The position numbers and the translations under genes are program-made. The notes under the pieces were generated by a model that saw only the letters and a list, made by a program, of their open reading frames with translations, made no database searches and was not told the origin of the DNA. This document shows positions 19,921 to 49,197 of a DNA stretch of 64,000 nucleotides, one piece after another (the first letter of the stretch is position 1; each line of letters opens with the position of its first letter). This DNA comes from Victivallales bacterium (lineage in GTDB: Bacteria > Verrucomicrobiota > Lentisphaeria > Victivallales > UBA1829), in contig JAZUCU010000024.1 in the NCBI GenBank assembly GCA_045639325.1, forward strand, positions 4,737-68,736. Direction: 5' to 3'.

Positions 19921-20032
19921 TTCTTTCTTTTATTCTATTTTTCCTTTTTACACACTGAAAACACTACCATCCTTTTCTTTTTTTTGTTTTTATTTGCTGA
20001 TTACGATTTTTGCTGTAAGATTTTTTTACAAG

Positions 20033-20079
20033 TCAGAAGTCAGTATTCCAGATGAAAAACAAATAAAAAAACGAAAGGA
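20033..20079 (+). repeat. Direct repeat copy 1 (47 bp)
   Basis: TCAGAAGTCAGTATTCCAGATGAAAAACAAATAAAAAAACGAAAGGA. Confidence 0.85.
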
Positions 20080-20175
20080 AATAATAACTGCAAATTTTAT
20101 TGTCTTATACTTGTTAAGCTCTCCATATCGGAGAAGAATTTGAACAAAATCTACATTATGTAAGGAGTGTACTAT

Positions 20176-20553
20176 ATGTACAAGAAATCATTAAAATTTA
20201 TTTTATGCGGACTTTGTCTTTGTTCCTGTTTTGTTTTATTTGGCAACACTAGTAATAGTTCTAAGAAGGAAAATGCATTTTGTCTAACATGTCACATGAA
20301 AGCTCAGAAACAAAAAAAACAAAGTTATTCTTGTACATGTCCCAAAAAGCCAGAAAAAGTAACTGGTAAAACTATACCTCCTCCTCTGCTTAAGCGGCTT
20401 CAAGTCGCCGCTTATACATGTAATAGTAAAATAGCTAAGGCTTTTATATTCTGTGCATATGGAATAGTCTTCATATATTACAATTATCCAATCATAGGGA
20501 TAATATGCCTTGTCGTTGGTGGCGGCTTTGCATATGCTGCGTTGAAAAAATAA
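20176..20553 (+). CDS. Hypothetical Cys/Lys-rich membrane protein with a CxxCH motif
   Basis: SD AAGGAG 8 nt upstream of ATG 20176; signal-like N-terminus, CLTCH, two C-terminal hydrophobic segments. Confidence 0.6.
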   Translation: MYKKSLKFILCGLCLCSCFVLFGNTSNSSKKENAFCLTCHMKAQKQKKQSYSCTCPKKPEKVTGKTIPPPLLKRLQVAAYTCNSKIAKAFIFCAYGIVFIYYNYPIIGIICLVVGGGFAYAALKK

Positions 20554-20710
20554 AAATTGTTTTTTTTGATTATAAAGACGATTTCATCAAAAAGGAACAA
20601 TAATATACCTTTGTTGCAATGTACAGATTGCATTGTTTTTAGTGAACGCATTAAGATTAAGAAGAGTATTCTGGAAACTTTGCGATTTCTTATGTAAGTT
20701 AAAAATACAT

Positions 20711-20758
20711 TCAGAAGTAAGTATTCCAGATGAAAAAACAAATAAAAAACTGAAAGGA
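20711..20758 (+). repeat. Direct repeat copy 2 (48 bp)
   Basis: TCAGAAGTAAGTATTCCAGATGAAAAAACAAATAAAAAACTGAAAGGA. Confidence 0.85.
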
Positions 20759-20939
20759 TAAAAGTAATATCAACAAAAGAAAGTTGAAATCTTTGTTTGG
20801 GACATTTTTTGTTAAATATCGAATGTATATTTAGTATTTAGCATAACCTGACAATTACAATTAAGTTACACTTATTTGCAGATATTGGTAAATAAGTCAG
20901 AAAGCTTTGATACTAACAAAATTTATCGTAGGAGAGAAA

Positions 20940-21746
20940 ATGAAAGATTTTGCAGCAATGATTCCTGAAATGGAACAAGAAGAATTACTGAAGGCTTGGA
21001 AAACAAACCGTATAATATGTTCCGTCAATGCAAGTTTGTTGTTTTTACTGATGATGTATGGAATAATGTTAATTGCGTATGCTCCTAAAACTGTTAATAA
21101 AACAGGGTTTCTTTGTTGGAGTATTATAGTAACCTCTGCTACTGTCCTGGCATTTATATCGACTCTTTTTTGCAAAAAAACTAAAAAGTGTTGGTATTCA
21201 GTTGTTTTTACAAGCGTCGGATTGGTGACTTTTTTGGTTGCATGGTTACATGGTGCACTATACTTGAGCGAGTACAAGATTTCAAAACTATTCGCTACTT
21301 TAAAAATGTGGGCTATGTATGAAGGTTGGTTGTTAAGCGTAATTTTGGTAATTGCAGCATATATTGTGATTATATCACTTTTTATCTGTTTTAGAAAATA
21401 TCTTTTGAACAGTATGGAACTCAAAAAAGAAATAAACAAACGGGCGGTAGATTATCTGAAAAGCCAAGATGTTGAAATTGTCAAAAATTTATATTGCACA
21501 ATGATTAAACAGATCTACTGTTTGATTGCTATGGTAATATTCGTAGCAATCATTGTAGTAGCTACAATCTTTGATGTTGCAGTCCTGGGCGTTTTTATGC
21601 TTCTTTTTACAATCGTATTATTACCGATTTTGCTGACATATTATTTCTGTAAGACGATTTATCTTCGGCACAAAGTTGCATGTCCGTTTCCGTTTTATTT
21701 CGCAACATTGAAAGCTGTCGTAAAAGACAATAATTGTACAAAATAA
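20940..21746 (+). CDS. Hypothetical polytopic membrane protein (about 6 TM)
   Basis: 268-codon ORF in AT-rich DNA, SD AGGAG, multiple hydrophobic helices; no family recognised. Confidence 0.7.
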   Translation: MKDFAAMIPEMEQEELLKAWKTNRIICSVNASLLFLLMMYGIMLIAYAPKTVNKTGFLCWSIIVTSATVLAFISTLFCKKTKKCWYSVVFTSVGLVTFLVAWLHGALYLSEYKISKLFATLKMWAMYEGWLLSVILVIAAYIVIISLFICFRKYLLNSMELKKEINKRAVDYLKSQDVEIVKNLYCTMIKQIYCLIAMVIFVAIIVVATIFDVAVLGVFMLLFTIVLLPILLTYYFCKTIYLRHKVACPFPFYFATLKAVVKDNNCTK

Positions 21747-21847
21747 CATCCATACCAATAGGGAGATCATCAATTGCTGGAACGAGTCTTAATCGCATTG
21801 GATTCTGTGAAAGCATTGAGATAAAGAAAATATTACGAGAACTATTT

Positions 21848-21897
21848 GCGGTCTCTTGTGTAAATCAACAATGCACAAGAAACCGCTATGTTTTTTT
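21848..21897 (+). terminator. Probable intrinsic terminator closing the AT-rich islet
   Basis: GCGGTCTCTTGTG...CACAAGAAACCGC followed by T run. Confidence 0.65.
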
Positions 21898-22229
21898 AGA
21901 TTAATGATGCCGGGATGCACAAAACATCTTTATTCGGCAGGGGCAATATTTCCGGACAGGAACAGACGATCGCGCCTTTTTTGACCTTTATTTTGTGATT
22001 TGCAAATCGAAAAACGATATATATTCGTTATTTTTTTATCTATTTTCAGTGTTTTGTGTATTAGAGGGAAAAAAACTGTGATGATTTCAATTTCAAATTC
22101 AAAGTACGGGAACTGCAGAAAAAAATTCTTGCGTTGCTTGCAAAAAAGCACTTTCAAGGTTATATTACTGCAAAACGTAAACGGCTGAAATGCCGATTTT
22201 ATCAGTCAAAAAAATAAAGGTTCAAAAAT

Positions 22230-27967: not shown

Positions 27968-28714
27968 GTGAAGATGTCTTCATTCCGTAAATTTACTTTG
28001 ATTGAACTGCTTGTTGTGATTGCAATTATTGCAATCCTTGCATCCATGCTGCTGCCTGCGCTTGGACGTGTCAAGGACAGTGCAAGTTTATCTCAGTGTC
28101 TCAACAACTGCAAAAATCTTTCCCGTGCCATGTATGCGTATGAAAGTGATCATAACGGTTATTTGTGCGATGTTTATAACCGGACAAAAGATGCAAGCAA
28201 TAATCAGCTTGGCTGGACATATCGTATTTATACTTATGCTACGGGTGATAAAGTGGTATGGCACTCCAGCGGGGGAATTGACGGCACAAAGAGTGCATCT
28301 GTTTTCTTTTGTCCCTCCAGTTCCGGAAACGGAATGTCAAAAAGCTTGCGAGTTTATGATACCTCTGTCGGTTATGGCGGAAATATCCTTTTGAATTCTT
28401 CTACTGTTCTGAAAGTCAGTCAGTTGAAACAGCCGTCCCAGAAAGCCCTTGTTGCAGAAAAATGGCGTTGTGATGCCTGGTATGTGGAAGGCAGAAAGCG
28501 CAATAATGCATCCCAGTACCGTCCCGCATTACGCCATGGCACCAATATGTTCATGGATGAAAAAAGTGAATTGACAAAAGCTCAAGTGACTGCTGCGTTT
28601 GTTGCATCCAATAAAGGAACATCCAACGTGGTGTTTGCGGATGGTCACGTGGAAAGCTGCAAGTATCCCCGTTTGACAGAAAACAGTCACTTTATTTTCC
28701 ACCTTGAAAAATGA
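27968..28714 (+). CDS. Prepilin-type N-terminal cleavage/methylation domain protein (DUF1559/H-X9-DG-like)
   Basis: KFTLIELLVVIAIIAILASMLLPAL, CLNN, FFCPS, RH...NVVFADGHVE. Confidence 0.9.
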   Translation: MKMSSFRKFTLIELLVVIAIIAILASMLLPALGRVKDSASLSQCLNNCKNLSRAMYAYESDHNGYLCDVYNRTKDASNNQLGWTYRIYTYATGDKVVWHSSGGIDGTKSASVFFCPSSSGNGMSKSLRVYDTSVGYGGNILLNSSTVLKVSQLKQPSQKALVAEKWRCDAWYVEGRKRNNASQYRPALRHGTNMFMDEKSELTKAQVTAAFVASNKGTSNVVFADGHVESCKYPRLTENSHFIFHLEK

Positions 28715-31065
28715 AGTCTGTTCTCTTTCTACTCCTTCTTTTACAGAGCTTTTATATTGCCGGGGCAGGGGAATTGCTGCGGAACGGGGCATTGACTCCG
28801 GATGCGCAGGGGAATCTGCCCCATTGGAAGCCGCTTGATAAAAAAAGCCGTCTGTTTCTGGAAAACGGATATGTCGGCGGCGGTGCATTTGTACCCGGGA
28901 AAAAGGCGCCGGATTTTTCATTTTATCAGGAAATTTATTTTGAGAAACCGGATAAATCTCCTGTTGTATTTCAGGGGGAAAGTCTTGCGTATAACGCCGG
29001 TTATGGCGGCGACTATTGTATTTTTGCCGATTTACATTTTACAGACGGCACTGCCCGTTACGCCGTAAAAGCGAAATGGCGTCCGGGGACTCATGACTGG
29101 GAACGGGCTGTAATGTGTTATTATCCGGAAAAGCCGGTCCGGAAGATTGAACTTTCGGTTTTGTTGCGGAATACCAGCGGTAAGGCTTTATTCCGTAATA
29201 TCAGTCTCCGTCGTGGCAATCCGGGACCTATGATTTCTTATTATTCCTTTCTTTCCCTTGCGCCGTTCTCCCGGGAACATTACCGGCTGGATCTTGGATT
29301 TTTCGGCATAAAAACTCAATTCAGCGGAAAGTTCCTTGATAAAACAGGAAAGGTCCTTGCTGAATTCAAGGGGAAAGGTAAAATTTACCGGAAAGAATTT
29401 GCTTTTCCAACTCCGCCCCATGCTCTTGAATTGGTGATGACGGATAAAAATATCACAAAGCAGGAAAGAATCCAGTTACAGTCCGGGAATCAAAATACAG
29501 AAAAGAACAATGTATCTGCACCGGTTGTCTGGTGTGCCAATGCAATGGAAAAGGTCTCCCCTTTGACGTTGCCCGGGAAGAAACCGGCGCGTCAGATGCT
29601 TTTGGAACTTGCCGGCAATGAACGGGAAAGTATGCAGATCGTTGTTACCAACGGAAGCAAGCAGGAATTGAAGAATGTAACCTGTACGGTTTCCGGCTTT
29701 TTTAACAAAGATGGTGTCAAATTCTCCGGTAAAATCGACTTGCGGAGAATCGCATATCGTCCGCGGACGATTCCTTATGCGACGCATCCGGAACAATTGC
29801 CGGAATCGGAATACTGGCTGCCGGATCCACTTCTGCCGATGCGTGCTTTTTCTGTGCCGGGCAGGGGAAATGCGGGTATCTGGGTGACGGCATACGCACC
29901 CGCCGGGACGCCCCATGGAATTTATTCGGGAAATATCAAGGTTGCGGCTGAAGGTAAGGTATTAGGAAATATCAAAGTACAGATTCGTGTATTCGGTTTT
30001 GATTTGCCGCAGACATTCACCTATCGTTCTGCATTTTCTGTGATGGATGGATTTCTGGAGCATTATTATCCGGGGCGTTTGCAGGAATTCCGCCGCAAGG
30101 CATGGGATATCATGTTGGATCACCGGTTGAATCCGGATGATATTACGCGTACAGAAATGCCGGAGATTCCGGATTTGCTTTATGCACGGTCGCGCGGGAT
30201 GAACAGTTTCAATATTCTGCATCTGGTGCCGAAGCCGAAGAAGAAAGTGCTTTGGATGCTCTGGGCGAAACTTTCTGATTATAACGAAAAACTGTTTGCG
30301 GAATTTGCGGAGCGTCTTGACGGATACATTGCAGAATTGGAAAAACATGATCTGAAAAAATATGGCTATTTCTATGGTTTCGATGAACGGCGTAAAGATG
30401 CGTTTGATGCATTGAGCCGGACACGGGCATTTGTCAAAAAACGTTGGAATATTCCGCTCATGTCGACCTCTGTCATGTTTCAGGAATTGGTGCGTCATCC
30501 GGAAAAGAAAGAATATCAAACGACAGACTGGTATTGCCCGTTGACCAATTTTTATCATCCGGGGCATGCGGAACGTTTACGCAAAAATGGACATCAGGTG
30601 TGGACTTATACCTGTTGCGGACCGGAATATCCCTATGTCAACTTTGCGAATCTGGAATATCCTTTCCTCAATGGACGGCAGATTGCCTGGCAGGTGTATA
30701 CCCTTGGCGCAGATGGTTTTCTTTACTGGCATGTGAATAACTGGGCAAGAAAAAAGCCCATGTTCATGTATGAGAAAAACAGTTTTCAGCGTTGGTATCA
30801 GCATGATAAATTTGCTATGAATGCTACCGGCGACGGCGAATTGCTTTATCCGGGCATGAATGATATTTATCCCTCAATCCGCCTTGCAAATGTACGTGAC
30901 GGCAGCGAGGATTATGATTATCTGACCATGCTCCGGGCAAAAAATCCGGCATTGGCAGATAAATTGGCAAAAGAAGTCTGCCCGGATAGAAGAAACGGAA
31001 TCCGGGATTATAAGAAACTTTTGGAAGTCCGCCGAAAAATAGCAGAATATCTGGAAAAGAATTGA
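28711..31065 (+). CDS. Secreted DUF4091/GH123-like putative glycoside hydrolase with N-terminal CBM-like domain
   Basis: Signal peptide, NERESMQ, PDPLLP, YGFDE, WTYTCC, GFLYW, GDGELLYPG, SIRLANVRDGSEDYDYL. Confidence 0.75.
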   Translation: MKSVLFLLLLLQSFYIAGAGELLRNGALTPDAQGNLPHWKPLDKKSRLFLENGYVGGGAFVPGKKAPDFSFYQEIYFEKPDKSPVVFQGESLAYNAGYGGDYCIFADLHFTDGTARYAVKAKWRPGTHDWERAVMCYYPEKPVRKIELSVLLRNTSGKALFRNISLRRGNPGPMISYYSFLSLAPFSREHYRLDLGFFGIKTQFSGKFLDKTGKVLAEFKGKGKIYRKEFAFPTPPHALELVMTDKNITKQERIQLQSGNQNTEKNNVSAPVVWCANAMEKVSPLTLPGKKPARQMLLELAGNERESMQIVVTNGSKQELKNVTCTVSGFFNKDGVKFSGKIDLRRIAYRPRTIPYATHPEQLPESEYWLPDPLLPMRAFSVPGRGNAGIWVTAYAPAGTPHGIYSGNIKVAAEGKVLGNIKVQIRVFGFDLPQTFTYRSAFSVMDGFLEHYYPGRLQEFRRKAWDIMLDHRLNPDDITRTEMPEIPDLLYARSRGMNSFNILHLVPKPKKKVLWMLWAKLSDYNEKLFAEFAERLDGYIAELEKHDLKKYGYFYGFDERRKDAFDALSRTRAFVKKRWNIPLMSTSVMFQELVRHPEKKEYQTTDWYCPLTNFYHPGHAERLRKNGHQVWTYTCCGPEYPYVNFANLEYPFLNGRQIAWQVYTLGADGFLYWHVNNWARKKPMFMYEKNSFQRWYQHDKFAMNATGDGELLYPGMNDIYPSIRLANVRDGSEDYDYLTMLRAKNPALADKLAKEVCPDRRNGIRDYKKLLEVRRKIAEYLEKN

Positions 31066-38103: not shown

Positions 38104-38883
38104 TCAACTCTTGCGATAGGCTCCCGGCGGCATGCCGTAAAGCTGTTTGAAACGGCGTGAAAAATGGAAACGGTCTTTTACGCCGATCATTTCACAAACC
38201 TTTTCGATATCATATTCTCCGTTTTTCAGAAGATACGCCGCCATGGTGTAGCGGACGCTCAACAGATACTGGTAGGGTGTAACTTTTGTAATTTCCTGAA
38301 AACGAGCCAGAAATGCATTAACAGACATCCCGGCTTCCTGCGCCATAGATTCCAATGTGAAATCATCTCCCGGATTGTTGCTGATGTGATTCCGCACCCG
38401 TGTGATACGGTCATCGGTTTCTGATTCGCAAAGCAGTTCCGGATCCACCTGTTCCAGAACTTCCGCTGCAAGTTGGAATGCTTTCAACGTGATACGCCAT
38501 TGTGGAACTTGGGTGTCCAACATATTCTGCAACGATTCAAATTTTTCTTTGATGCTGTCCGTCATCGGCAGTTCATGATATAAAATATCGCTGCGCCCGG
38601 TGAGCCGGTCCATTTCAAAATGAATATAGAGTTGACGGGGATTTTTTTCGACCCAGGTTTTCAATTCGCAATTGGGCACCAGCAGATAAATTTTATCCGG
38701 TTGCATTTCGATCTTTTTTCCACCGGAATAAATGCCGGCACCATCGGTATCATTATGATAGAGCCGCCAGCAATAGCCGGAAAGAGTATTCTGCTGCCAT
38801 TCGGAAAGAAGTTCAGCGGAATGGACCAGCTGAATCTTCATGGTAGGGTACTGCTGAATAATGCCTTCATAAATTTTTGTCAT
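38104..38883 (-). CDS. AraC family transcriptional regulator
   Basis: MAQEAGMS...F, IGVKDRFHFSRRFKQLYGMPPGAYR; start at MTKIY after GAGG. Confidence 0.9.
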   Translation of the reverse strand: MTKIYEGIIQQYPTMKIQLVHSAELLSEWQQNTLSGYCWRLYHNDTDGAGIYSGGKKIEMQPDKIYLLVPNCELKTWVEKNPRQLYIHFEMDRLTGRSDILYHELPMTDSIKEKFESLQNMLDTQVPQWRITLKAFQLAAEVLEQVDPELLCESETDDRITRVRNHISNNPGDDFTLESMAQEAGMSVNAFLARFQEITKVTPYQYLLSVRYTMAAYLLKNGEYDIEKVCEMIGVKDRFHFSRRFKQLYGMPPGAYRKS

Positions 38884-38974
38884 AAAAATATCCTCGTTTT
38901 TGAGCTGGAATACTATATCACAAAAATGAGAATTTGCAAATTTATTCAGCAGATATCCCGGAAATATTATATTC

Positions 38975-41098
38975 TTATTTCTCAAATTCCATCAGGTATG
39001 CACCGAACATTTTTGCATCCAGAGGAATGCGGAATTTGCCATTGCCGCTGCTCTTGATGGTTTTGATGCCTTCGCCTTTCGGGAATGCATCAGAAAGGAT
39101 TTTGATGGTGCATTTCTGGTAATCGGCGGGCAGGTTGACTGTGATCTGATTTGTCGCAGAACGGAACTGGGAAACGACAAGATGCACTTTTCCATCTTTG
39201 CTAATACCGGCGAGAGGATAAATGCCTGCGCCTGCATAAGATGTGGTAATCGGCACTTTGTTGAGGTTCTTTCTTGCAAATTCAGAATAGAAGAGAAGGG
39301 CATAATAAAGTTTGTAAGGATTGTTCCAGGAGGCGAATGTACCCCAGCGTCCTGCACTGGCAAAGTGATAGAAGAATGTCATATCCGCAACTTCCTGAAG
39401 AGATACGAGGGTTGCAAGAGAGAATGCGGCGTTTGCCATGGATTTTTTCATGTGATCGTCCGCTGCAAGATTTTCCCAGTCGAGCGGGTTGAGATTCCAT
39501 TCAGCAAGGATCACTTCCGCATTGTTGAATCCGTATTTGTCTGCGATGGCACGGATGGATTTCATGGTGTTGTAGAAATTGATCGGGTCTCTGACATATC
39601 CGGTAACACTGAGGAAGTCCAACGGAATGGATTCTTTCTTGCAGAGTGCCGCCAGTGCTTCCACGGATTTGAGCTGAATCGACTGGGGACCGCCAACTTT
39701 CACGTTGGGAAATGCTTTTTTCATTTCTGTTGCGAAGTCTCTGTAAAGATCCAGATATTTTTCATAAGGACCATCAAACAATTTTTTGTTGTCCGGTTCT
39801 TCCCAAAGGGATGCGTAGCGGATGTTCCATTTTTTGCCATTTGCCCAGCCTTCGTTGTAATGACGGAGGATATTGACGCAAATTTTTGCCCATTTTTTTG
39901 TATCGGTCGGGGGATGTACTCGGAAACGTTTTCCGGAATGTTCAATTGATTCACCAAAGTGGAATTCGATTTCAATACCGCAATCTGCGACCTGCTGCAA
40001 ATAGAAGTCGGTCGGCTCGAAAATGTAATTTCTGGGATCGTCCGGATCGGCATGGAAGAGGGGGAAGATCTGGCTGACATCGATCAGTGCATACCCGGCG
40101 TTATTGTGTGTAGCATCCATGTGTCTGACGCGTGCAGGGGCGAGCTTCTTGAGCAATTCCTTTTCCTTAAGCATTCTTCCTGCATTGCTGATACGGGGAG
40201 AATTGTTCATGCCGAAAATATTTTTTTGTACGGCTCCGGGTTTGTCGGCGGCGAGAGTCAACGTTACATTTTTGGATGCGGCGAAATGTGTATTGCGTGC
40301 AGAAATGATTTTACCTTCTTTTGTATTTTCTTTGCGAATCAACTTTGCGGTGTTGTAAACGATTTTGTCGTTATCCACGCAGTTCTGAATGTCGCTGGCA
40401 ATTTCTCTGCGGAGAATATTGCCGATGTCACGGAATTCGTAAAACTTGATATCGAGAGAAGACAATGCCTTGATGTCTTTTGTCAGATGTTTCCAGGGGT
40501 AAATAATAGTGACATCGCTTTCATGTACGGATTTATTTTTCTTATCACTGGCAATGGTTTTGATTTCTGATTTTTTGACTTCCACATCGTTGATCTGATA
40601 ATGGAAATCGCCTTTTTCGTTGACTGTGACAACGATTTTATCATTAGCTGCATTTCTTGTTTCGAACCAGAAATAGGAGCTGCCCCAGATGCCGCCTTTT
40701 TCATCAAATTTATGAAGATTGTTCGGGATGACGGTTTTGACATTGACGTAAAAATTGGTATCATCGAACAGCATTTTTACCGTAATATCAGCCATGGAGC
40801 GTTCGAGAGATTCCAGATTGAACAGATCGGTAACGGCATCTGCTTTTTTCCAGACGGCAGCATTGTTTTTGCCGTCTTTTGTAATCGGAGATTCGGAAGT
40901 GTAATAAACAGAGTAGGTCTGACTGATCATTTTTGTTTTCTCCTTTGTTTTGACCGGGGCGTTTGCAGCATCTGCTTTTGCTGTGACATCTTTCAATTTA
41001 CCCTTCATGCCGTAAGCGACACCCGTCGTGATGAGTCCGCCGAGCAGGGCAATGATTGCAATTACCGCAATGAGTTCGACCATTGAAAATCTCTTCAT
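38975..41098 (-). CDS. Prepilin-type leader + CBM9-like domain + GH39-like glycoside hydrolase fusion
   Basis: MKRFSMVELIAVIAIIALLGGLI; PITKDG....W..A and KMLFDDTNFYV (CBM9-like); IFGMNN, DPDDPRNY.F..TD.Y, LWEEPD, VGGP, LDFLS, LAEWN (clan GH-A/GH39-like). Confidence 0.78.
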   Translation of the reverse strand: MKRFSMVELIAVIAIIALLGGLITTGVAYGMKGKLKDVTAKADAANAPVKTKEKTKMISQTYSVYYTSESPITKDGKNNAAVWKKADAVTDLFNLESLERSMADITVKMLFDDTNFYVNVKTVIPNNLHKFDEKGGIWGSSYFWFETRNAANDKIVVTVNEKGDFHYQINDVEVKKSEIKTIASDKKNKSVHESDVTIIYPWKHLTKDIKALSSLDIKFYEFRDIGNILRREIASDIQNCVDNDKIVYNTAKLIRKENTKEGKIISARNTHFAASKNVTLTLAADKPGAVQKNIFGMNNSPRISNAGRMLKEKELLKKLAPARVRHMDATHNNAGYALIDVSQIFPLFHADPDDPRNYIFEPTDFYLQQVADCGIEIEFHFGESIEHSGKRFRVHPPTDTKKWAKICVNILRHYNEGWANGKKWNIRYASLWEEPDNKKLFDGPYEKYLDLYRDFATEMKKAFPNVKVGGPQSIQLKSVEALAALCKKESIPLDFLSVTGYVRDPINFYNTMKSIRAIADKYGFNNAEVILAEWNLNPLDWENLAADDHMKKSMANAAFSLATLVSLQEVADMTFFYHFASAGRWGTFASWNNPYKLYYALLFYSEFARKNLNKVPITTSYAGAGIYPLAGISKDGKVHLVVSQFRSATNQITVNLPADYQKCTIKILSDAFPKGEGIKTIKSSGNGKFRIPLDAKMFGAYLMEFEK

Positions 41099-41261
41099 TT
41101 TCTTGTTGCTCCTATCCTTGTTTTGTTGTTTTTGAAACTTTTTATTCTTTTCTGATTGCAGAGAAAAAAATCTCTGCTATATTATAATGTACACAGTATC
41201 AGGAAATATTCAATCTTGATTCGGAATATAATATCGAACAATTGTGCCAAAGTATAGAACA

Positions 41262-42113
41262 ATGATGATAGAACGTAAAAGAATCCTCTATATGCCGGGG
41301 CGAACGCAGCGTTATTTGCAGCTGGGGTGTCAGATTTCGGAATTCGGATATTTGCCCGATCAGGTTCCGATGAACAGAAACCGTACTCTCAACGCCCTGT
41401 TTTTCTGCATTATTCTGTGCAGTGACGGCAAGGGGAGGGCACTGATCAATGGCATGCCTGTCAACAGTAGATTTTCTCCTCCGTTTCTCACTATTCATAC
41501 GCCGGGGACGGTTCTCCATACGGTTCAGCCGTCTCTGCACGATGAAATTTATTTCAGTTATTCCGGAGAAAATGCGGAAAATATGATGAAGATGGGCTTT
41601 CAGAGCGGACATTTTGAGGTGACTCCGGAAATCAGTGATATTATAGCCCGGATCCGGAGCAATTTGTGCTTGCCCGATTCGCCCGGTAAAGCGGATATGA
41701 TGGATCTGCTGGCATTGCAATTACTGGTTGCCATCCGGGAATCGAAAGAAATGTGTTCGGAGAAATATCGGGAAGATGGAACACGATTTCCCGAGCTGAC
41801 CAATTATCTGGAAATGCATTATCTGGAAAATCCGTCCTTATCGTTTCTGCTCCACAAATTCGGATTTTCCCGGCGGACATTTTTCCGTTTATGGAAGAAG
41901 AAATATACTTGTTCTTATACCGAATTTCTGAATGAATTGAAATTGAAGCATGGCGAGAGTCTTCTGGTAACGACTAATTTATCGGTGGAAGAAATCGCCC
42001 AGCAATGTGCATTTGCATCGGCAACTTATTTTATCCGGCGTTTCAAAAGTTATTACGGGGCGACACCGGTCGTATACAAAAAGCTCCGTCTGGCAGAAAA
42101 AATCCTGCAATAA
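41262..42113 (+). CDS. AraC family transcriptional regulator (divergent from the pilin-GH39 gene)
   Basis: IAQQCAFASATYFIRRFKSYYGATP; start uncertain. Confidence 0.88.
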   Translation: MMIERKRILYMPGRTQRYLQLGCQISEFGYLPDQVPMNRNRTLNALFFCIILCSDGKGRALINGMPVNSRFSPPFLTIHTPGTVLHTVQPSLHDEIYFSYSGENAENMMKMGFQSGHFEVTPEISDIIARIRSNLCLPDSPGKADMMDLLALQLLVAIRESKEMCSEKYREDGTRFPELTNYLEMHYLENPSLSFLLHKFGFSRRTFFRLWKKKYTCSYTEFLNELKLKHGESLLVTTNLSVEEIAQQCAFASATYFIRRFKSYYGATPVVYKKLRLAEKILQ

Positions 42114-43414: not shown

Positions 43415-44305
43415 ATGAAACACTTTGCAATGCTTACACTTGTTGCCGCAACCGCCCTTACCGGTGTTTATGCTGCGGATCTCGCCCCTGTCAAATCCAC
43501 AGTAAAACAGGTTTATGTTTATCAGCCGGAAAAATATTCTGTCCGTCAGGGCGGTACGATTTCCAATCAGTTCAATACCTATTTGCTTACTGTGACGGTT
43601 TCCAAACCGATGGGTAACAAACCTCCGCAGCTTCAGTTTGATATCTCCGCCGGTAATTTCGGTTTCAATCCGCTGATCAACCCCCTGCGTATCACGGTCA
43701 ACGATATTGCTCTGAGTAAACTTTCTGTTAAAGCAGAAGATTTCACTGCCTGGAAAGATGGCGATAAAGCCGGTACACAGTTGAAGCTTAACTTCGACGG
43801 TGCAAAATATACTCTGATCAGCTACATGCGCCCCGATTCTCCGGTTCTGTGGATGACTTTGAAAGCAGACCCCTCCAGCGTTGAACCCACAGAAACTTTG
43901 ACGATTCAGGTTTCCAACCTGACATCCAACCTCGTCCGCGTCAACAAAAAGATAGCCTGGATCGGTGCTTATCAGCGTGAATTCATCACTCCGACCCGTA
44001 CATTGAAACAGCAGGTAAAAGAATATGTCCTGACTCCGGCAGAAAATGAGATCACATTCACAGACAAAATCTTTGACGGCTCTGCAAAAGATAAAGGTGC
44101 AGGTCCCACCTGGTTCCAGTTCGATTCTTCTGTTGTTACAAAAGCAACGGTTACTGTCCGTAACGAATGGGTGAATGTCGTCAAAATGACCGTGAAACCG
44201 GATGCAAAGGAATTCAAGTTCGCTTACTGGCAGCAGAAGCCCGCCATTTCCAATGCTGATTTCCAGAAGAAACTCAAAGAAGAAAAGAAAGCATTCACCC
44301 GCTGA
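43415..44305 (+). CDS. Hypothetical secreted beta-rich protein
   Basis: SD AAGGAG, signal peptide; no family recognised. Confidence 0.8.
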   Translation: MKHFAMLTLVAATALTGVYAADLAPVKSTVKQVYVYQPEKYSVRQGGTISNQFNTYLLTVTVSKPMGNKPPQLQFDISAGNFGFNPLINPLRITVNDIALSKLSVKAEDFTAWKDGDKAGTQLKLNFDGAKYTLISYMRPDSPVLWMTLKADPSSVEPTETLTIQVSNLTSNLVRVNKKIAWIGAYQREFITPTRTLKQQVKEYVLTPAENEITFTDKIFDGSAKDKGAGPTWFQFDSSVVTKATVTVRNEWVNVVKMTVKPDAKEFKFAYWQQKPAISNADFQKKLKEEKKAFTR

Positions 44306-47022: not shown

Positions 47023-49197
47023 ATGACCCTTCCTGATATTCCTGATAAAACTTGTACGCCGATTGCATTGAATCATTTTCCTACACGCTGGCAGGCGGTG
47101 TTGTGGCGGAATTATTCCTATTTTACATTGGAAAAACTGGCAGCGTTGCTGAAATGTCAGGTGAATGACCTGAAAGATGCCGCAGTCAAAATGGGACTTC
47201 CTGCCGTTCAGCCGCCGATTGGTACCTGGCAGAAAGATGGATATATCACGATCCTGCGCGACAACTGGCATTTGCTTCCTTATGAACAAATCATGGAATT
47301 GCTGGAATGGTCACAGGATCGTTTTGTCTATGCGTTGCGGGAAGAAGACTTCCTCTGGGGTAAACTCGGCGGCATGAAGCCGGAATGTGAAATGGTCCAA
47401 TACGCCCCGCTGACTCCGGAACAGGAAGCCGCGACCGAAGTTTTCCGTAACAGCTGGCAGAAATATGTCAAGGCGGAGGATTACGGTTATCAGGAACAGC
47501 CCTTTGCATTCCGGGATCAATACCGTACCTTCTTCCCCATTGCAGGCAAGAAAAGCCCCTTTGATCTCTGTTTTGTTCATTCTTACGCTGCAACTTGCGG
47601 TGACGTTCTTCTGGATATTGAATCCCGTGACCCGGTTCCGGAAAATCTGTTGAAAGAATATGCCGCCCAGGGGGTGAATGGTATCTGGTTCCACGCCTTG
47701 CTGTATCGTCTGCATCCAGTTGCCGGTTCCGAAGAATTTTCGGAAGGTTATGAGATCCGCCTTGCCAATTTGCAGAAGATCGTAGCCCGTTGTAAAAAAT
47801 ATGGCATCGGTTTGTATCTGTATCTGAATGAACCCCGTGGTATGACGGATGGATTTTATCAGAAGAATCCGGATTGGCGCGGTATCACGGCGAATGCGGA
47901 AAGACTCATTTATGCCAACTGCGTCAGTAAAGGTGCGGTTTTGACATGGATGGAAGATGCGTTGTATAACATCTTCAAAAAAGTGCCTGATCTTGCCGGT
48001 ACATTCCTGATTACCATGTCGGAAAATCAGACTCATTGCAATTCCGGTCATAAGATCGATCTTTGTCCTCTGTGCAGCAAACGTCATGGCTCCGAATTGA
48101 TTGCAGATATTGCGGTTGCAGCGGAGCGCGGGATTCACCGGGCCTCTCCCGATGCTGTCCTGATGATGTCCGACTGGGCATGGGCGGAAAAGAATTTTGA
48201 CCATGAATGTATCTTCCGCAAAAAAGTGATTGACCGTCTCCCGAAAGATGCCTGGTATTTGTGCATCAGCGAATGGGGTAAGGAAATTCATGTCGGCGGC
48301 GTCCGCAACGATGTGTTTGACTATTCCATTTCCCAGGTCGGCCCCTCCGATGAAGTGCGGGAAGCTATCCGTTACGCAAAAGAAAAAGGCTTGAAAGTTG
48401 CGGCAAAGATTCAGGCAAACAATTCCTGGGAACTTTCCGGTGTGCCTTATATTCCAGTGCCTCATCTGGTGGAAGAACACATCAATAACCTGAAAGAATT
48501 GGGCGTTGACGGCTTGATGATGAGCTGGACTCATGGCGGTTATCCGGGGGGCAATCTGGCATTGATCCACAGCACTGCAGATCAATTGGTGCAGGAAAAC
48601 TTCCATCCGGAAGCGGCGCAGATCATTACAAAATGCCTGAAAGATTTTTCCGCAGCATTCCGCCATTTTCCGTTCGACGTCGGAACCATGTACCGGAGTC
48701 CGGTGAATGCCGGGGCGAGAAATCTGCTTCATCTGCAGGATACCGGTTTCAAATCGACCATGGTCGGTTATCCCTACGATGACTTGAAGGGATGGCGTTC
48801 CGTCTATCCGGAAGATATTTTTGAAGATCATTTCCGGATGGTGACGGAAGGCTGGTCTGGGGCGTTGAAGGAATTGGAAGCGGCATCAAGCTGTATTCAG
48901 GAAACGGAACGGGAGCTGTATGTTGAGATCCTCTCCATGGCACAGGGCTCCTTTGCGCATTTGCAGAGTACCTATCTGCAAACATGCTTTATCCGCCGCC
49001 GCAATGCCGGTGACGTGGAAGGTATGAAGAAGTATGCCCGTGAGGAATTGGAAAATACACTTGCGTTGTATTCTCTGATGCGGCGGGATTCCCGTGTTGG
49101 CTTTGAATCCAGCAACCATTATTACTATTCTCTCCAGTCCATTCTGGAAAAGATCGTGAATTGCGAAACGATCCTTGCCGAATTGGATAAAAACTGA
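47023..49197 (+). CDS. Hypothetical protein (724 aa), possible TIM-barrel glycoside hydrolase-like
   Basis: Long ORF with normal composition; GVNGIWFH, GIGLYLYLNEP, ITMSEN, Cys cluster; no signal peptide. Confidence 0.7.
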   Translation: MTLPDIPDKTCTPIALNHFPTRWQAVLWRNYSYFTLEKLAALLKCQVNDLKDAAVKMGLPAVQPPIGTWQKDGYITILRDNWHLLPYEQIMELLEWSQDRFVYALREEDFLWGKLGGMKPECEMVQYAPLTPEQEAATEVFRNSWQKYVKAEDYGYQEQPFAFRDQYRTFFPIAGKKSPFDLCFVHSYAATCGDVLLDIESRDPVPENLLKEYAAQGVNGIWFHALLYRLHPVAGSEEFSEGYEIRLANLQKIVARCKKYGIGLYLYLNEPRGMTDGFYQKNPDWRGITANAERLIYANCVSKGAVLTWMEDALYNIFKKVPDLAGTFLITMSENQTHCNSGHKIDLCPLCSKRHGSELIADIAVAAERGIHRASPDAVLMMSDWAWAEKNFDHECIFRKKVIDRLPKDAWYLCISEWGKEIHVGGVRNDVFDYSISQVGPSDEVREAIRYAKEKGLKVAAKIQANNSWELSGVPYIPVPHLVEEHINNLKELGVDGLMMSWTHGGYPGGNLALIHSTADQLVQENFHPEAAQIITKCLKDFSAAFRHFPFDVGTMYRSPVNAGARNLLHLQDTGFKSTMVGYPYDDLKGWRSVYPEDIFEDHFRMVTEGWSGALKELEAASSCIQETERELYVEILSMAQGSFAHLQSTYLQTCFIRRRNAGDVEGMKKYAREELENTLALYSLMRRDSRVGFESSNHYYYSLQSILEKIVNCETILAELDKN

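Follow-up and report, generated by a model that had tools for sequence, protein, structure and literature searches.

GH39 glycoside hydrolases such as CmGH1 of Croceicoccus marinus (5Z3K) and XynB/XynB1 (1PX8, 2BS9) combine a barrel with a β-sandwich, and family 9 carbohydrate-binding modules (CBM9) are represented by CBM9-2 of Thermotoga maritima Xyn10A (1I82) and a Caldicellulosiruptor kristjanssonii module (7NWN). The tethering of exported glycosidases by a lipid or a helix is commonplace. Modular type IV pilins place a functional module behind a pilin-type N terminus, and an InterPro survey counted more than 1,200 such proteins in 264 architectures, lectin and predicted peptidase modules among them, as stated in the available part of that report (Raynaud et al. 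2021; PMC8179133). Another precedent, as far as the available part of that literature goes, is the archaeal bindosome, whose sugar-binding proteins carry class III signals. Here we describe an open reading frame (ORF) of 707 codons plus stop that begins MKRFSMVELIAVIAIIALLGGLITTGVAYG and places a pilin-like leader and a linker ahead of a CBM9-like domain and a GH39 domain. The ORF is a single open frame at positions 38975 to 41098 on the minus strand of a 64,000-nucleotide stretch of Victivallales DNA (GenBank assembly GCA_045639325.1, contig JAZUCU010000024.1, positions 4,737 to 68,736), hereafter called the window. Sequence comparison and structural models make it somewhat more probable than an even chance that the product is a GH39 glycosidase under AraC control that faces outward on a signal anchor and binds glycans through its CBM9-fold domain.

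The protein has features in common with several of these systems. Like the modular pilins PilB and PilC of S. sanguinis, it carries a functional module behind a pilin-type N terminus, but in the available part of the survey those proteins have the IPR012902 motif and a full pilin module, whereas here neither is present and only the extra modules are found (PMC8179133). Moreover, the glutamate at position +5 of the leader (Glu8, counting Phe4 as +1) is not conserved among orthologues. With the prepilin and DUF1559/H-X9-DG family of the Planctomycetota-Verrucomicrobiota-Chlamydiota (PVC) bacteria, for example the window gene at 27968 to 28714, the protein shares a VIAIIA core and an MKR-F start, but it diverges after the core, lacks both LLPAL and the DUF1559 part, and continues into 650 residues of enzyme. 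With lipoprotein and signal-anchored glycosidases it shares a flexible linker between anchor and enzyme, although the window allele would rely on the helix itself. A literature search returned no paper linking DUF1559 with prepilin, and the available parts of the literature on prepilin-type N-terminal cleavage and glycoside hydrolases held none on a fused protein.

Enzyme domains of the protein

To assign the enzyme part, the whole 707-residue protein was scanned against Pfam, and GH39 (PF01229) was the sole significant family, scoring 56.7 bits where the cut-off is 26 (E value of 2.5e-15; residues 348 to 511). The closest solved chain by sequence was 5z3k, with an E value of 1.4e-27 in a HMMER alignment. 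An AlphaFold2 model built on an alignment of 60 homologues had a mean predicted local distance difference test score (pLDDT) of 88.6 and a predicted template modeling score (pTM) of 0.87, and was confident from residue 57 on. When the model was compared with solved structures by Foldseek, ranks 1 to 14 were all GH39 chains, headed by 5z3k (E value of 3.9e-32) and followed by XynB-type xylosidases. The GH39 module, residues 273 to 707 (38978 to 40282, minus strand), is modeled as a (β/α)8 barrel with a C-terminal β-sandwich, and its fold aligned to 5Z3K with a target-normalized template modeling (TM) score of 0.73 and about 20% identity, the closest characterized enzymes being about 14 to 20% identical.

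The two catalytic glutamates predicted from the motifs LWEEPD and LAEWN are Glu434, the putative acid/base (39797 to 39799), and Glu533, the putative nucleophile (39500 to 39502). Glu434 was invariant and Glu533 at least 90% conserved among the 60 aligned homologues. In the HMMER alignment, Glu434 faces Gln157 and Glu533 faces Tyr264 of CmGH1, positions that correspond to Glu160 (acid/base) and Glu277 (nucleophile) of XynB in the available part of the CmGH1 report (PMC6933502). The protein thus has Glu/Glu where CmGH1 has Gln/Tyr in that same part of the report, and it differs from the usual GH39 motif in that the Asn before the acid/base Glu is itself Glu (WEEPD).

The N-terminal domain, residues 57 to 272 (40283 to 40930, minus strand), was recognized by fold. 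CBM9_1 (PF06452) scored 15.6 bits on this protein, below its cut-off of 23.4, and matched four of six aligned N-terminal domains with a best E value of 2.1e-5; a profile of the domain had no match among Protein Data Bank sequences. When residues 57 to 272 were modeled separately from six sequences, a model of moderate confidence was obtained (pLDDT of 72, pTM of 0.75), and its top Foldseek matches were the CBM9 modules 7nwn (E value of 5e-6), 1i82 (7.3e-6) and 7nwo (1.3e-5), with TM scores of 0.48 to 0.58. The domain thus appears to be a CBM9/DOMON-like β-sandwich that shares its fold with known CBM9 modules at about 11 to 12% identity, and it differs from them in standing N-terminal to GH39 and, in the relatives, in occurring in proteins without a signal peptide. 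Relative to the GH39 enzymes of known structure, the CBM9-fold domain and the leader are additions. A first-pass annotation, made from the DNA letters alone, had proposed a CBM9-like and a GH39-like domain together with both catalytic motifs, and the fold matches, the Pfam score and the conservation of the two glutamates agree with it. We conclude that the gene product is predicted to be a family GH39 enzyme, a retaining glycosidase of clan GH-A, whose N-terminal domain has the CBM9 fold and would bind sugars.

The N-terminal extension and its alleles

To characterize the region ahead of the enzyme, the first 56 codons were compared between the genome containing the window (G000; 3.45 Mb, 60 contigs, 94% complete, with the window on contig C24) and a second genome of the same genus (G010). 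The extension begins with a positively charged n-region, Met1-Lys2-Arg3 (41090 to 41098, minus strand, as are all features of the gene), preceded by a Shine-Dalgarno-like AGGAG (41109 to 41113) 10 nucleotides 5′ of the Met1 ATG. A hydrophobic leader or anchor helix follows, Phe4 to Gly30 (41009 to 41089), with Glu8 at 41075 to 41077, and then a disordered Lys/Ala-rich linker of residues 31 to 56 (40931 to 41008). In the AlphaFold2 model, residues 6 to 21 form a helix and residues 18 to 53 are disordered, with pLDDT below 50. The linker evolves fast and every indel in it is in frame: codons 1 to 56 of the two genomes differ by three indels of 1, 7 and 2 codons, all of them in frame. The 15 codons of the hydrophobic core have six synonymous changes and one non-synonymous change, the 26 columns of the linker have 10 non-synonymous, 4 synonymous and 7 gapped, and the 651 codons of the enzyme part have 111 synonymous and 36 non-synonymous changes and no gaps. 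Taken as a whole, the leader differs by 8 non-synonymous changes over 28 aligned codons, whereas the remainder of the protein has 36 over 651. We conclude that the extension is coding and translated, with a hydrophobic core under selection, because the indels are in frame, the changes in the core are mostly synonymous, and an AGGAG precedes Met1.

The extension is rare among homologues. The N termini of 192 homologues were inspected, comprising 48 of 49 from a word-indexed search and others among the best 150 of 1,737 from an exhaustive search, and 191 of them lacked the leader, an outcome that the first-pass annotation had said would count against a pilus-displayed enzyme. The one carrier, P0002, is 97% identical to the window protein. 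In the subfamily that combines the CBM9-like and GH39 domains (38 to 58% identical), all 11 members start at the position of Met57 (40928 to 40930) without a hydrophobic N terminus, and these close relatives are presumably cytoplasmic because they are leaderless. Across the wider GH39 family a hydrophobic, Sec-like N terminus was found in 67 of the 192 homologues and none in the other 125, which suggests that exported forms of the enzyme family are common and arise repeatedly. A search of 60 genomes of the bacterial family gave 17 with a match at an E value of 1e-60 or below, of which only G000 and G010 (92% identical) were matched through to the N terminus; no second copy was found in G000 at that threshold. 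Finally, when the first 130 residues were searched against a set of 5.8 billion proteins, only the protein's own 90% cluster was recovered. We conclude that the extension is best described as an add-on to a leaderless family, restricted to one clade.

Sequences around Met57 point to how the add-on may have arisen. An internal AAGGAG (40940 to 40945) lies 9 nucleotides ahead of the Met57 ATG, and in G010 (contig C102, 7947 to 12011 for the gene pair) the leader-bearing gene (L002) is directly followed by a leaderless paralogue (L018) that is 57% identical and has an AAGGAG 9 nucleotides before its own start, as Met57 does. The internal AAGGAG thus appears to be the retained ribosome-binding site of an ancestral leaderless gene, and as Met57 keeps it with its 9-nucleotide spacer, the 3′ end of the linker would be a former 5′ untranslated region (UTR) that is now read through. 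The tandem genes of G010 would be an exported and cytoplasmic pair. An origin by deletion and fusion with an upstream pilin-like gene was also considered and is not supported, as the 1.5-kb flanks of the full-length leaderless loci L003, L004, L005 and L018 contained no pilin-like motif 5′ of the gene. Of the 19 homologue loci that lie outside G000, three GH39-only ones (L007, L017 and L019) have a canonical pilin-like gene, but it stands just 3′ of the homologue, not 5′.

Near-identical sisters of the window gene carry a different signal in the same segment. Type B, in which Lys replaces Glu+5 and a lipobox Cys is present, reads MKKRFSLVKNIAVIATIALLGGLITAC; it was seen in the orthologue of G010 and, among the 15 listed sequences of the 90% cluster (25 members), in 7. 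Relative to the window, the G010 gene has Glu+5 changed to Lys (GAA to AAA), Leu+6 to Asn, and Gly26 (GGT) to Cys27 (TGT), giving the lipobox ITA-C. A regular expression for the lipobox, a PROSITE PS51257-like rule that the type B allele fits, was positive for P0195, P0197 and P0206 and negative for P0001 and P0200; the window allele has Gly26 where the sister has Cys27. The remaining listed members comprised one of the window's own type (type A), two of a diverged Glu type without Cys (type A′), two called from Met57 and three fragments, and all three Glu-type members (A and A′) keep Glu+5 and lack the Cys. The mature parts of all leader types are 93.8 to 98.3% identical. A tree of the mature parts supported only the type A pair (100/99) and left A′ and B in a polytomy; parsimony mildly favors the Glu type as the older, and we do not rely on it. 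Signal peptidase II is encoded in the genome. The Lys and lipobox of the near-identical sister sequences suggest that the pilin-defining Glu+5 is dispensable in this clade, and the first-pass annotation's own counter-scenario, an N terminus that acts as an ordinary Sec anchor, is what the Sec-type lipobox signal of the sister allele looks like.

These observations suggest a mechanism. One Lentisphaeria genus would recently have gained a 56-codon 5′ extension that supplied a new start and ribosome site, a hydrophobic helix resembling the leaders of the roughly 100 pilin-like (DUF1559-type) proteins of the genome, and a linker running through the old 5′ UTR. We infer that the helix acts as a signal-anchor dependent on Sec and the signal recognition particle (SRP), a route and topology that would leave the enzyme outside the cytoplasmic membrane, held at its outer face by a flexible Lys/Ala tether of about 26 residues, and that the helix would stay uncleaved. 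In the sister strains the same segment would have become a lipoprotein signal in which a lipid anchor replaces the helix, and the exported enzyme would be tethered in either case. Some cytoplasmic short form may still be made from the internal ribosome site at Met57. Sec-dependent export and membrane tethering would be the common denominator of the alleles; the core is selected, Glu can be dispensed with, and the segment can be converted to a lipobox.

The pilin-like leader and the route of export

The leader carries Phe4 (+1), Glu8 (+5) and then about 22 uncharged residues (Leu9 to Gly30), and Arg3 stands at −1 so that Gly(−1) is absent. To determine how closely it resembles prepilin leaders, it was scored with curated and genome-specific profiles. 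It missed both curated thresholds: TIGR02532 gave 10.8 bits in hmmscan and 15.7 bits in a six-frame genome search, against a threshold of 16.3, and PF07963 gave 12.1 bits on the first 60 residues, against a cut-off of 21.2, with no match of the whole protein at an E value of 1 or below. A hidden Markov model (HMM) was then built from the 102 other leaders of G000 and run over about 4,900 N termini. It gave 19.5 bits for the GH39 leader and more than 30 bits for canonical leaders, with about 4 bits or less for ordinary signal peptides and 4 to 8 bits for putative minor pseudopilins beside a platform gene on contig C39. The remaining N termini scored about 8 bits or less, save three that also outscored the type B allele: a pilin-like leader (29.9 bits), a long N terminus with an internal leader-like stretch (19.9 bits) and one more (13.0 bits). 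As 19.5 bits stands against about 8 or less apart from these three, we conclude that the resemblance of the leader to the pilin-like leaders of the genome is not chance.

The likeness was detected at the protein level. The best match of the leader besides itself was a canonical leader of G000, with 14 of 23 residues identical (E value of about 1e-4, tblastn), and the MKR n-region also precedes a canonical pilin-like leader on contig C42; at the DNA level no match of the leader to a G000 paralogue exceeded 21 nucleotides. The same tblastn search surfaced a short frame at G000:C58:52716-52883 (...AIVEYIIIIAIIAVAALTILGIF...), which presumably resembles a Flp-type pilin. The first-pass annotation had described the N terminus as Phe+1, Glu+5, a hydrophobic helix and a Lys/Ala linker, a description that is accurate even though the curated cut-offs are missed.

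The genome contains many such leaders, and the GH39 gene stands apart among them. TIGR02532 gave 111 matches in G000 at an E value of 10 or below; 106 exceeded the cut-off, all on open frames of 152 to 359 residues, and the GH39 locus was the best of the five below it and the sole match on a long frame (733 residues). A pattern search found 103 leaders, and the GH39 gene was the only one on an ORF with more than 270 residues after Phe+1; the other 102 had 132 to 268, and nearly all of their proteins have an LLPAL motif. A genus-level search for long ORFs with pilin leaders returned open frames of at most 384 residues in all of its best 150 matches, with 227 weaker matches beyond these. Gly(−1) was present in only 6 of the 103 leaders, position −1 being mostly Arg (23), Lys (17) or Ser (12), and its lack in the GH39 leader is therefore not discriminating. 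Either the single prepilin peptidase of the genome (Peptidase_A24, contig C2) works without Gly(−1) or most of the pilin-like proteins stay uncleaved. Besides the peptidase, platform proteins and secretins are encoded in the genome, T2SS-F domains occurring in three sets and 10 secretin matches passing the cut-off; matches to PF00482, PF00263 and PF01478 fell on contigs C2, C22, C26, C29, C39, C43, C48 and C58, with none on C24.

Several of these results weigh against a signal-anchored, outward-facing enzyme. At 19.5 bits the leader is far nearer to the pilin-like leaders of the genome than ordinary signal peptides are, and for that reason a class III route keeps some probability. Glu+5 is retained in both Glu-type variants, A and A′, the missing Gly(−1) does not set the leader apart, and the genome has a prepilin peptidase, platform proteins and many secretins. 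Moreover, the Lys-rich linker after the helix would make the positive-inside rule ambiguous for topology, and a possible signal peptidase I site, Ala-Tyr-Gly at residues 28 to 30, could release the enzyme.

If the leader were a genuine class III signal, prepilin peptidase would cut before Phe4, and the helix would enter a machine like those of type II secretion or type IV pili, with the enzyme borne on or at the tip of a pilus or pseudopilus as a head-less modular pilin. Phe+1, Glu+5 and the hydrophobic helix are what such a signal requires in outline, among non-canonical matches to the leader profile of the genome this leader ranks first, its MKR n-region is identical to that of a canonical paralogue, and the necessary classes of assembly protein are encoded. 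Modular pilins with grafted modules, predicted peptidases included, are published, in the available part of the survey (PMC8179133). Against this, both curated thresholds were missed, no gene of the searched assembly families lies on contig C24, and the fusion is unique in the genome. The AlphaFold2 model has no pilin globular module after the helix, being disordered to residue 53 and then continuing into the CBM9 fold. Furthermore, at least seven near-identical sequences have Lys for Glu+5 and a lipobox, changes whose acceptance would be surprising in a filament subunit. In pilins the N-terminal helix is the most conserved part, whereas here it is the least conserved part of the protein. We consider a class III signal unlikely. 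The headline of the first-pass annotation, a carbohydrate-active enzyme built into a pilus, therefore finds no support in a leader that falls below both cut-offs, lacks a pilin head, is absent from 191 of 192 homologues and has a Lys/lipobox sister allele; its alternative wording, an enzyme anchored via the pilin helix, fits the evidence and is probably right, and it is incorporation into a filament that lacks support.

A cleavable Sec signal would have signal peptidase I cut after Ala-Tyr-Gly, at residue 30, and would leave the enzyme soluble in the periplasm or secreted by the type II system. The small residues at −3 and −1 (Ala28 and Gly30) come right after the hydrophobic stretch, as such a site would predict, and Sec-type or hydrophobic N termini are frequent both in the large enzymes beside pilin-like genes (52 of 75 by a hydrophobicity test) and in the GH39 homologues (67 of 192). 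The uncharged stretch of about 22 residues is, however, long for an h-region and enough to span the membrane, and the sister allele has a membrane anchor in its lipobox, a sign that selection may be maintaining the tether. We regard release by signal peptidase I as improbable.

A bolder scenario would derive the leader from the pilin-like proteins themselves. A leader copied from the family of more than 100 members onto a cytoplasmic CBM9-GH39 enzyme would be processed in Glu-type strains by a prepilin peptidase that acts independently of Gly(−1) and passed to a machine of the T2SS/T4P kind as a head-less, enzyme-bearing pilin, and the sister strains would have switched to a lipoprotein anchor. 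We hold this to be quite improbable. If true, it would be the first case of a pilin helix that bears a glycosidase directly, and the strains would amount to a natural swap experiment between class III and lipoprotein signals.

It is more doubtful still that the extension is non-productive, such that translation starts at Met57 and yields a cytoplasmic enzyme, with a leader ORF upstream that is decaying or has a regulatory role: the strong AAGGAG with its 9-nucleotide spacer is kept at Met57, the stretch K-x-K-E-K-x-K-M before it is the best-conserved linker part in all three variants, gene callers begin 2 of the 15 listed cluster members there, and all 11 subfamily relatives are leaderless, but the frame has stayed open through three in-frame indels, the core changes are six synonymous to one non-synonymous, three diverged leader variants are all open and hydrophobic, and one of them evolved a complete lipobox that is meaningful only if translated. 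An assembly chimera, which the first-pass annotation had raised as a hazard, was rejected, as the fusion junction was seen in both G000 and G010, on many independently assembled contigs, and in cluster members drawn from several archives, at least 10 of which have a complete N terminus.

The fusion could also be followed in sequencing runs. Bovine-gut metagenomes were the main holders of near-identical sequence, and close homologues are labeled Lentisphaeria in their source records. DNA contigs of two studies (X1 record 2 and X2 record 6) span from Met57 to beyond Met1, though one of the runs may be the window's own source. Contigs of a metatranscriptomic library (X20) have the type B leader and linker contiguous with the enzyme part; DNA carry-over is possible and the contigs give no transcript ends, so they are not counted as proof of expression.

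Genomic setting and meaning

The gene is flanked on both sides by AraC-family regulators, as the first-pass annotation had noted, and HTH_18 (AraC-type) domains were detected by Pfam in both neighbors. One regulator is divergently transcribed (41244 to 42113, plus strand). The other lies downstream and co-directional (38104 to 38985, minus strand); its ORF, called from a TTG start, overlaps the GH39 stop codon, and its first in-frame ATG is at 38883. An AraC-family gene also lies 5′ of the orthologue in G010, and the leaderless homologue of G009 has an AraC-like ORF 5′ of it. Elsewhere in the window, the ORFs at 43415 to 44305 (296 residues) and 47023 to 49197 (724 residues) matched no Pfam family at an E value of 0.001 or below, and an 847-residue ORF between them gave only a sub-threshold DUF4838 match. 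The 2-kb bin at 20001 to 22000 has a G+C fraction of 0.32, against 0.43 to 0.51 elsewhere in the window.

Pilin-like genes and glycan enzymes are associated in G000 in another way. Of 102 pilin-like genes, 75 have a same-strand ORF of at least 300 residues starting within −40 to +200 nucleotides downstream, and 51 are followed by an ORF of at least 700 residues, from a total of 343 such ORFs in six frames. A Sec-like hydrophobic N terminus was found in 52 of the 75 downstream ORFs. One pair is in the window (27968 to 31065), where the pilin-like gene at 27968 to 28714 overlaps the start of a GH123 gene. To survey the enzyme types, a random 30 of the 75 downstream ORFs (loci L021 to L050) were scanned against Pfam at an E value of 1e-5 or below and sorted by the first applicable family, in a sample that has no control gene set. 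DUF4838 was found in eight (one also with GH67-N and CBM9), and GH78, GH42, GH10, GH123-N, a BNR sialidase-like or a pectate-lyase-like family in six. CBM9 was found in two, a concanavalin-like lectin domain in two (one just under the cut-off) and DUF6259 in two. Four others were a kinase, an FAD oxidoreductase, a metallophosphatase and an M20 peptidase, and six had no match. At least 19 of the 30 thus carry a GH, CBM, lectin, DUF4838 or DUF6259 domain above the Pfam cut-offs, a count to be read without a control set. We conclude that the pilin-like expansion is linked to glycan degradation at the operon level, and that the GH39 fusion adds little to this link.

The first-pass annotation had offered the fusion as Rosetta-stone evidence that the PVC prepilin expansion serves glycan foraging. 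That role is ruled out because the fusion is single, lineage-restricted and without a pilin head domain, and the GH39 fusion does not explain the prepilin expansion. The link is better sought in pairs, one pilin-like gene followed by one exported enzyme.

The best reading of the locus is an exported, tethered glycosidase whose unusual pilin-derived or pilin-like anchor alternates with a lipobox. It would be a small case of protein relocalization, in which the old 5′ UTR of a cytoplasmic glycosidase is read through and the enzyme so acquires an anchor at its N terminus, and a clade that is at least 94% identical would hold two interchangeable anchors, a pilin-like helix and a lipobox. As the same enzyme body occurs with both signals, the pair offers an inexpensive way to ask whether prepilin peptidase accepts the leaders without Gly(−1) of the large PVC pilin-like family as substrates, with each form serving as control for the other.

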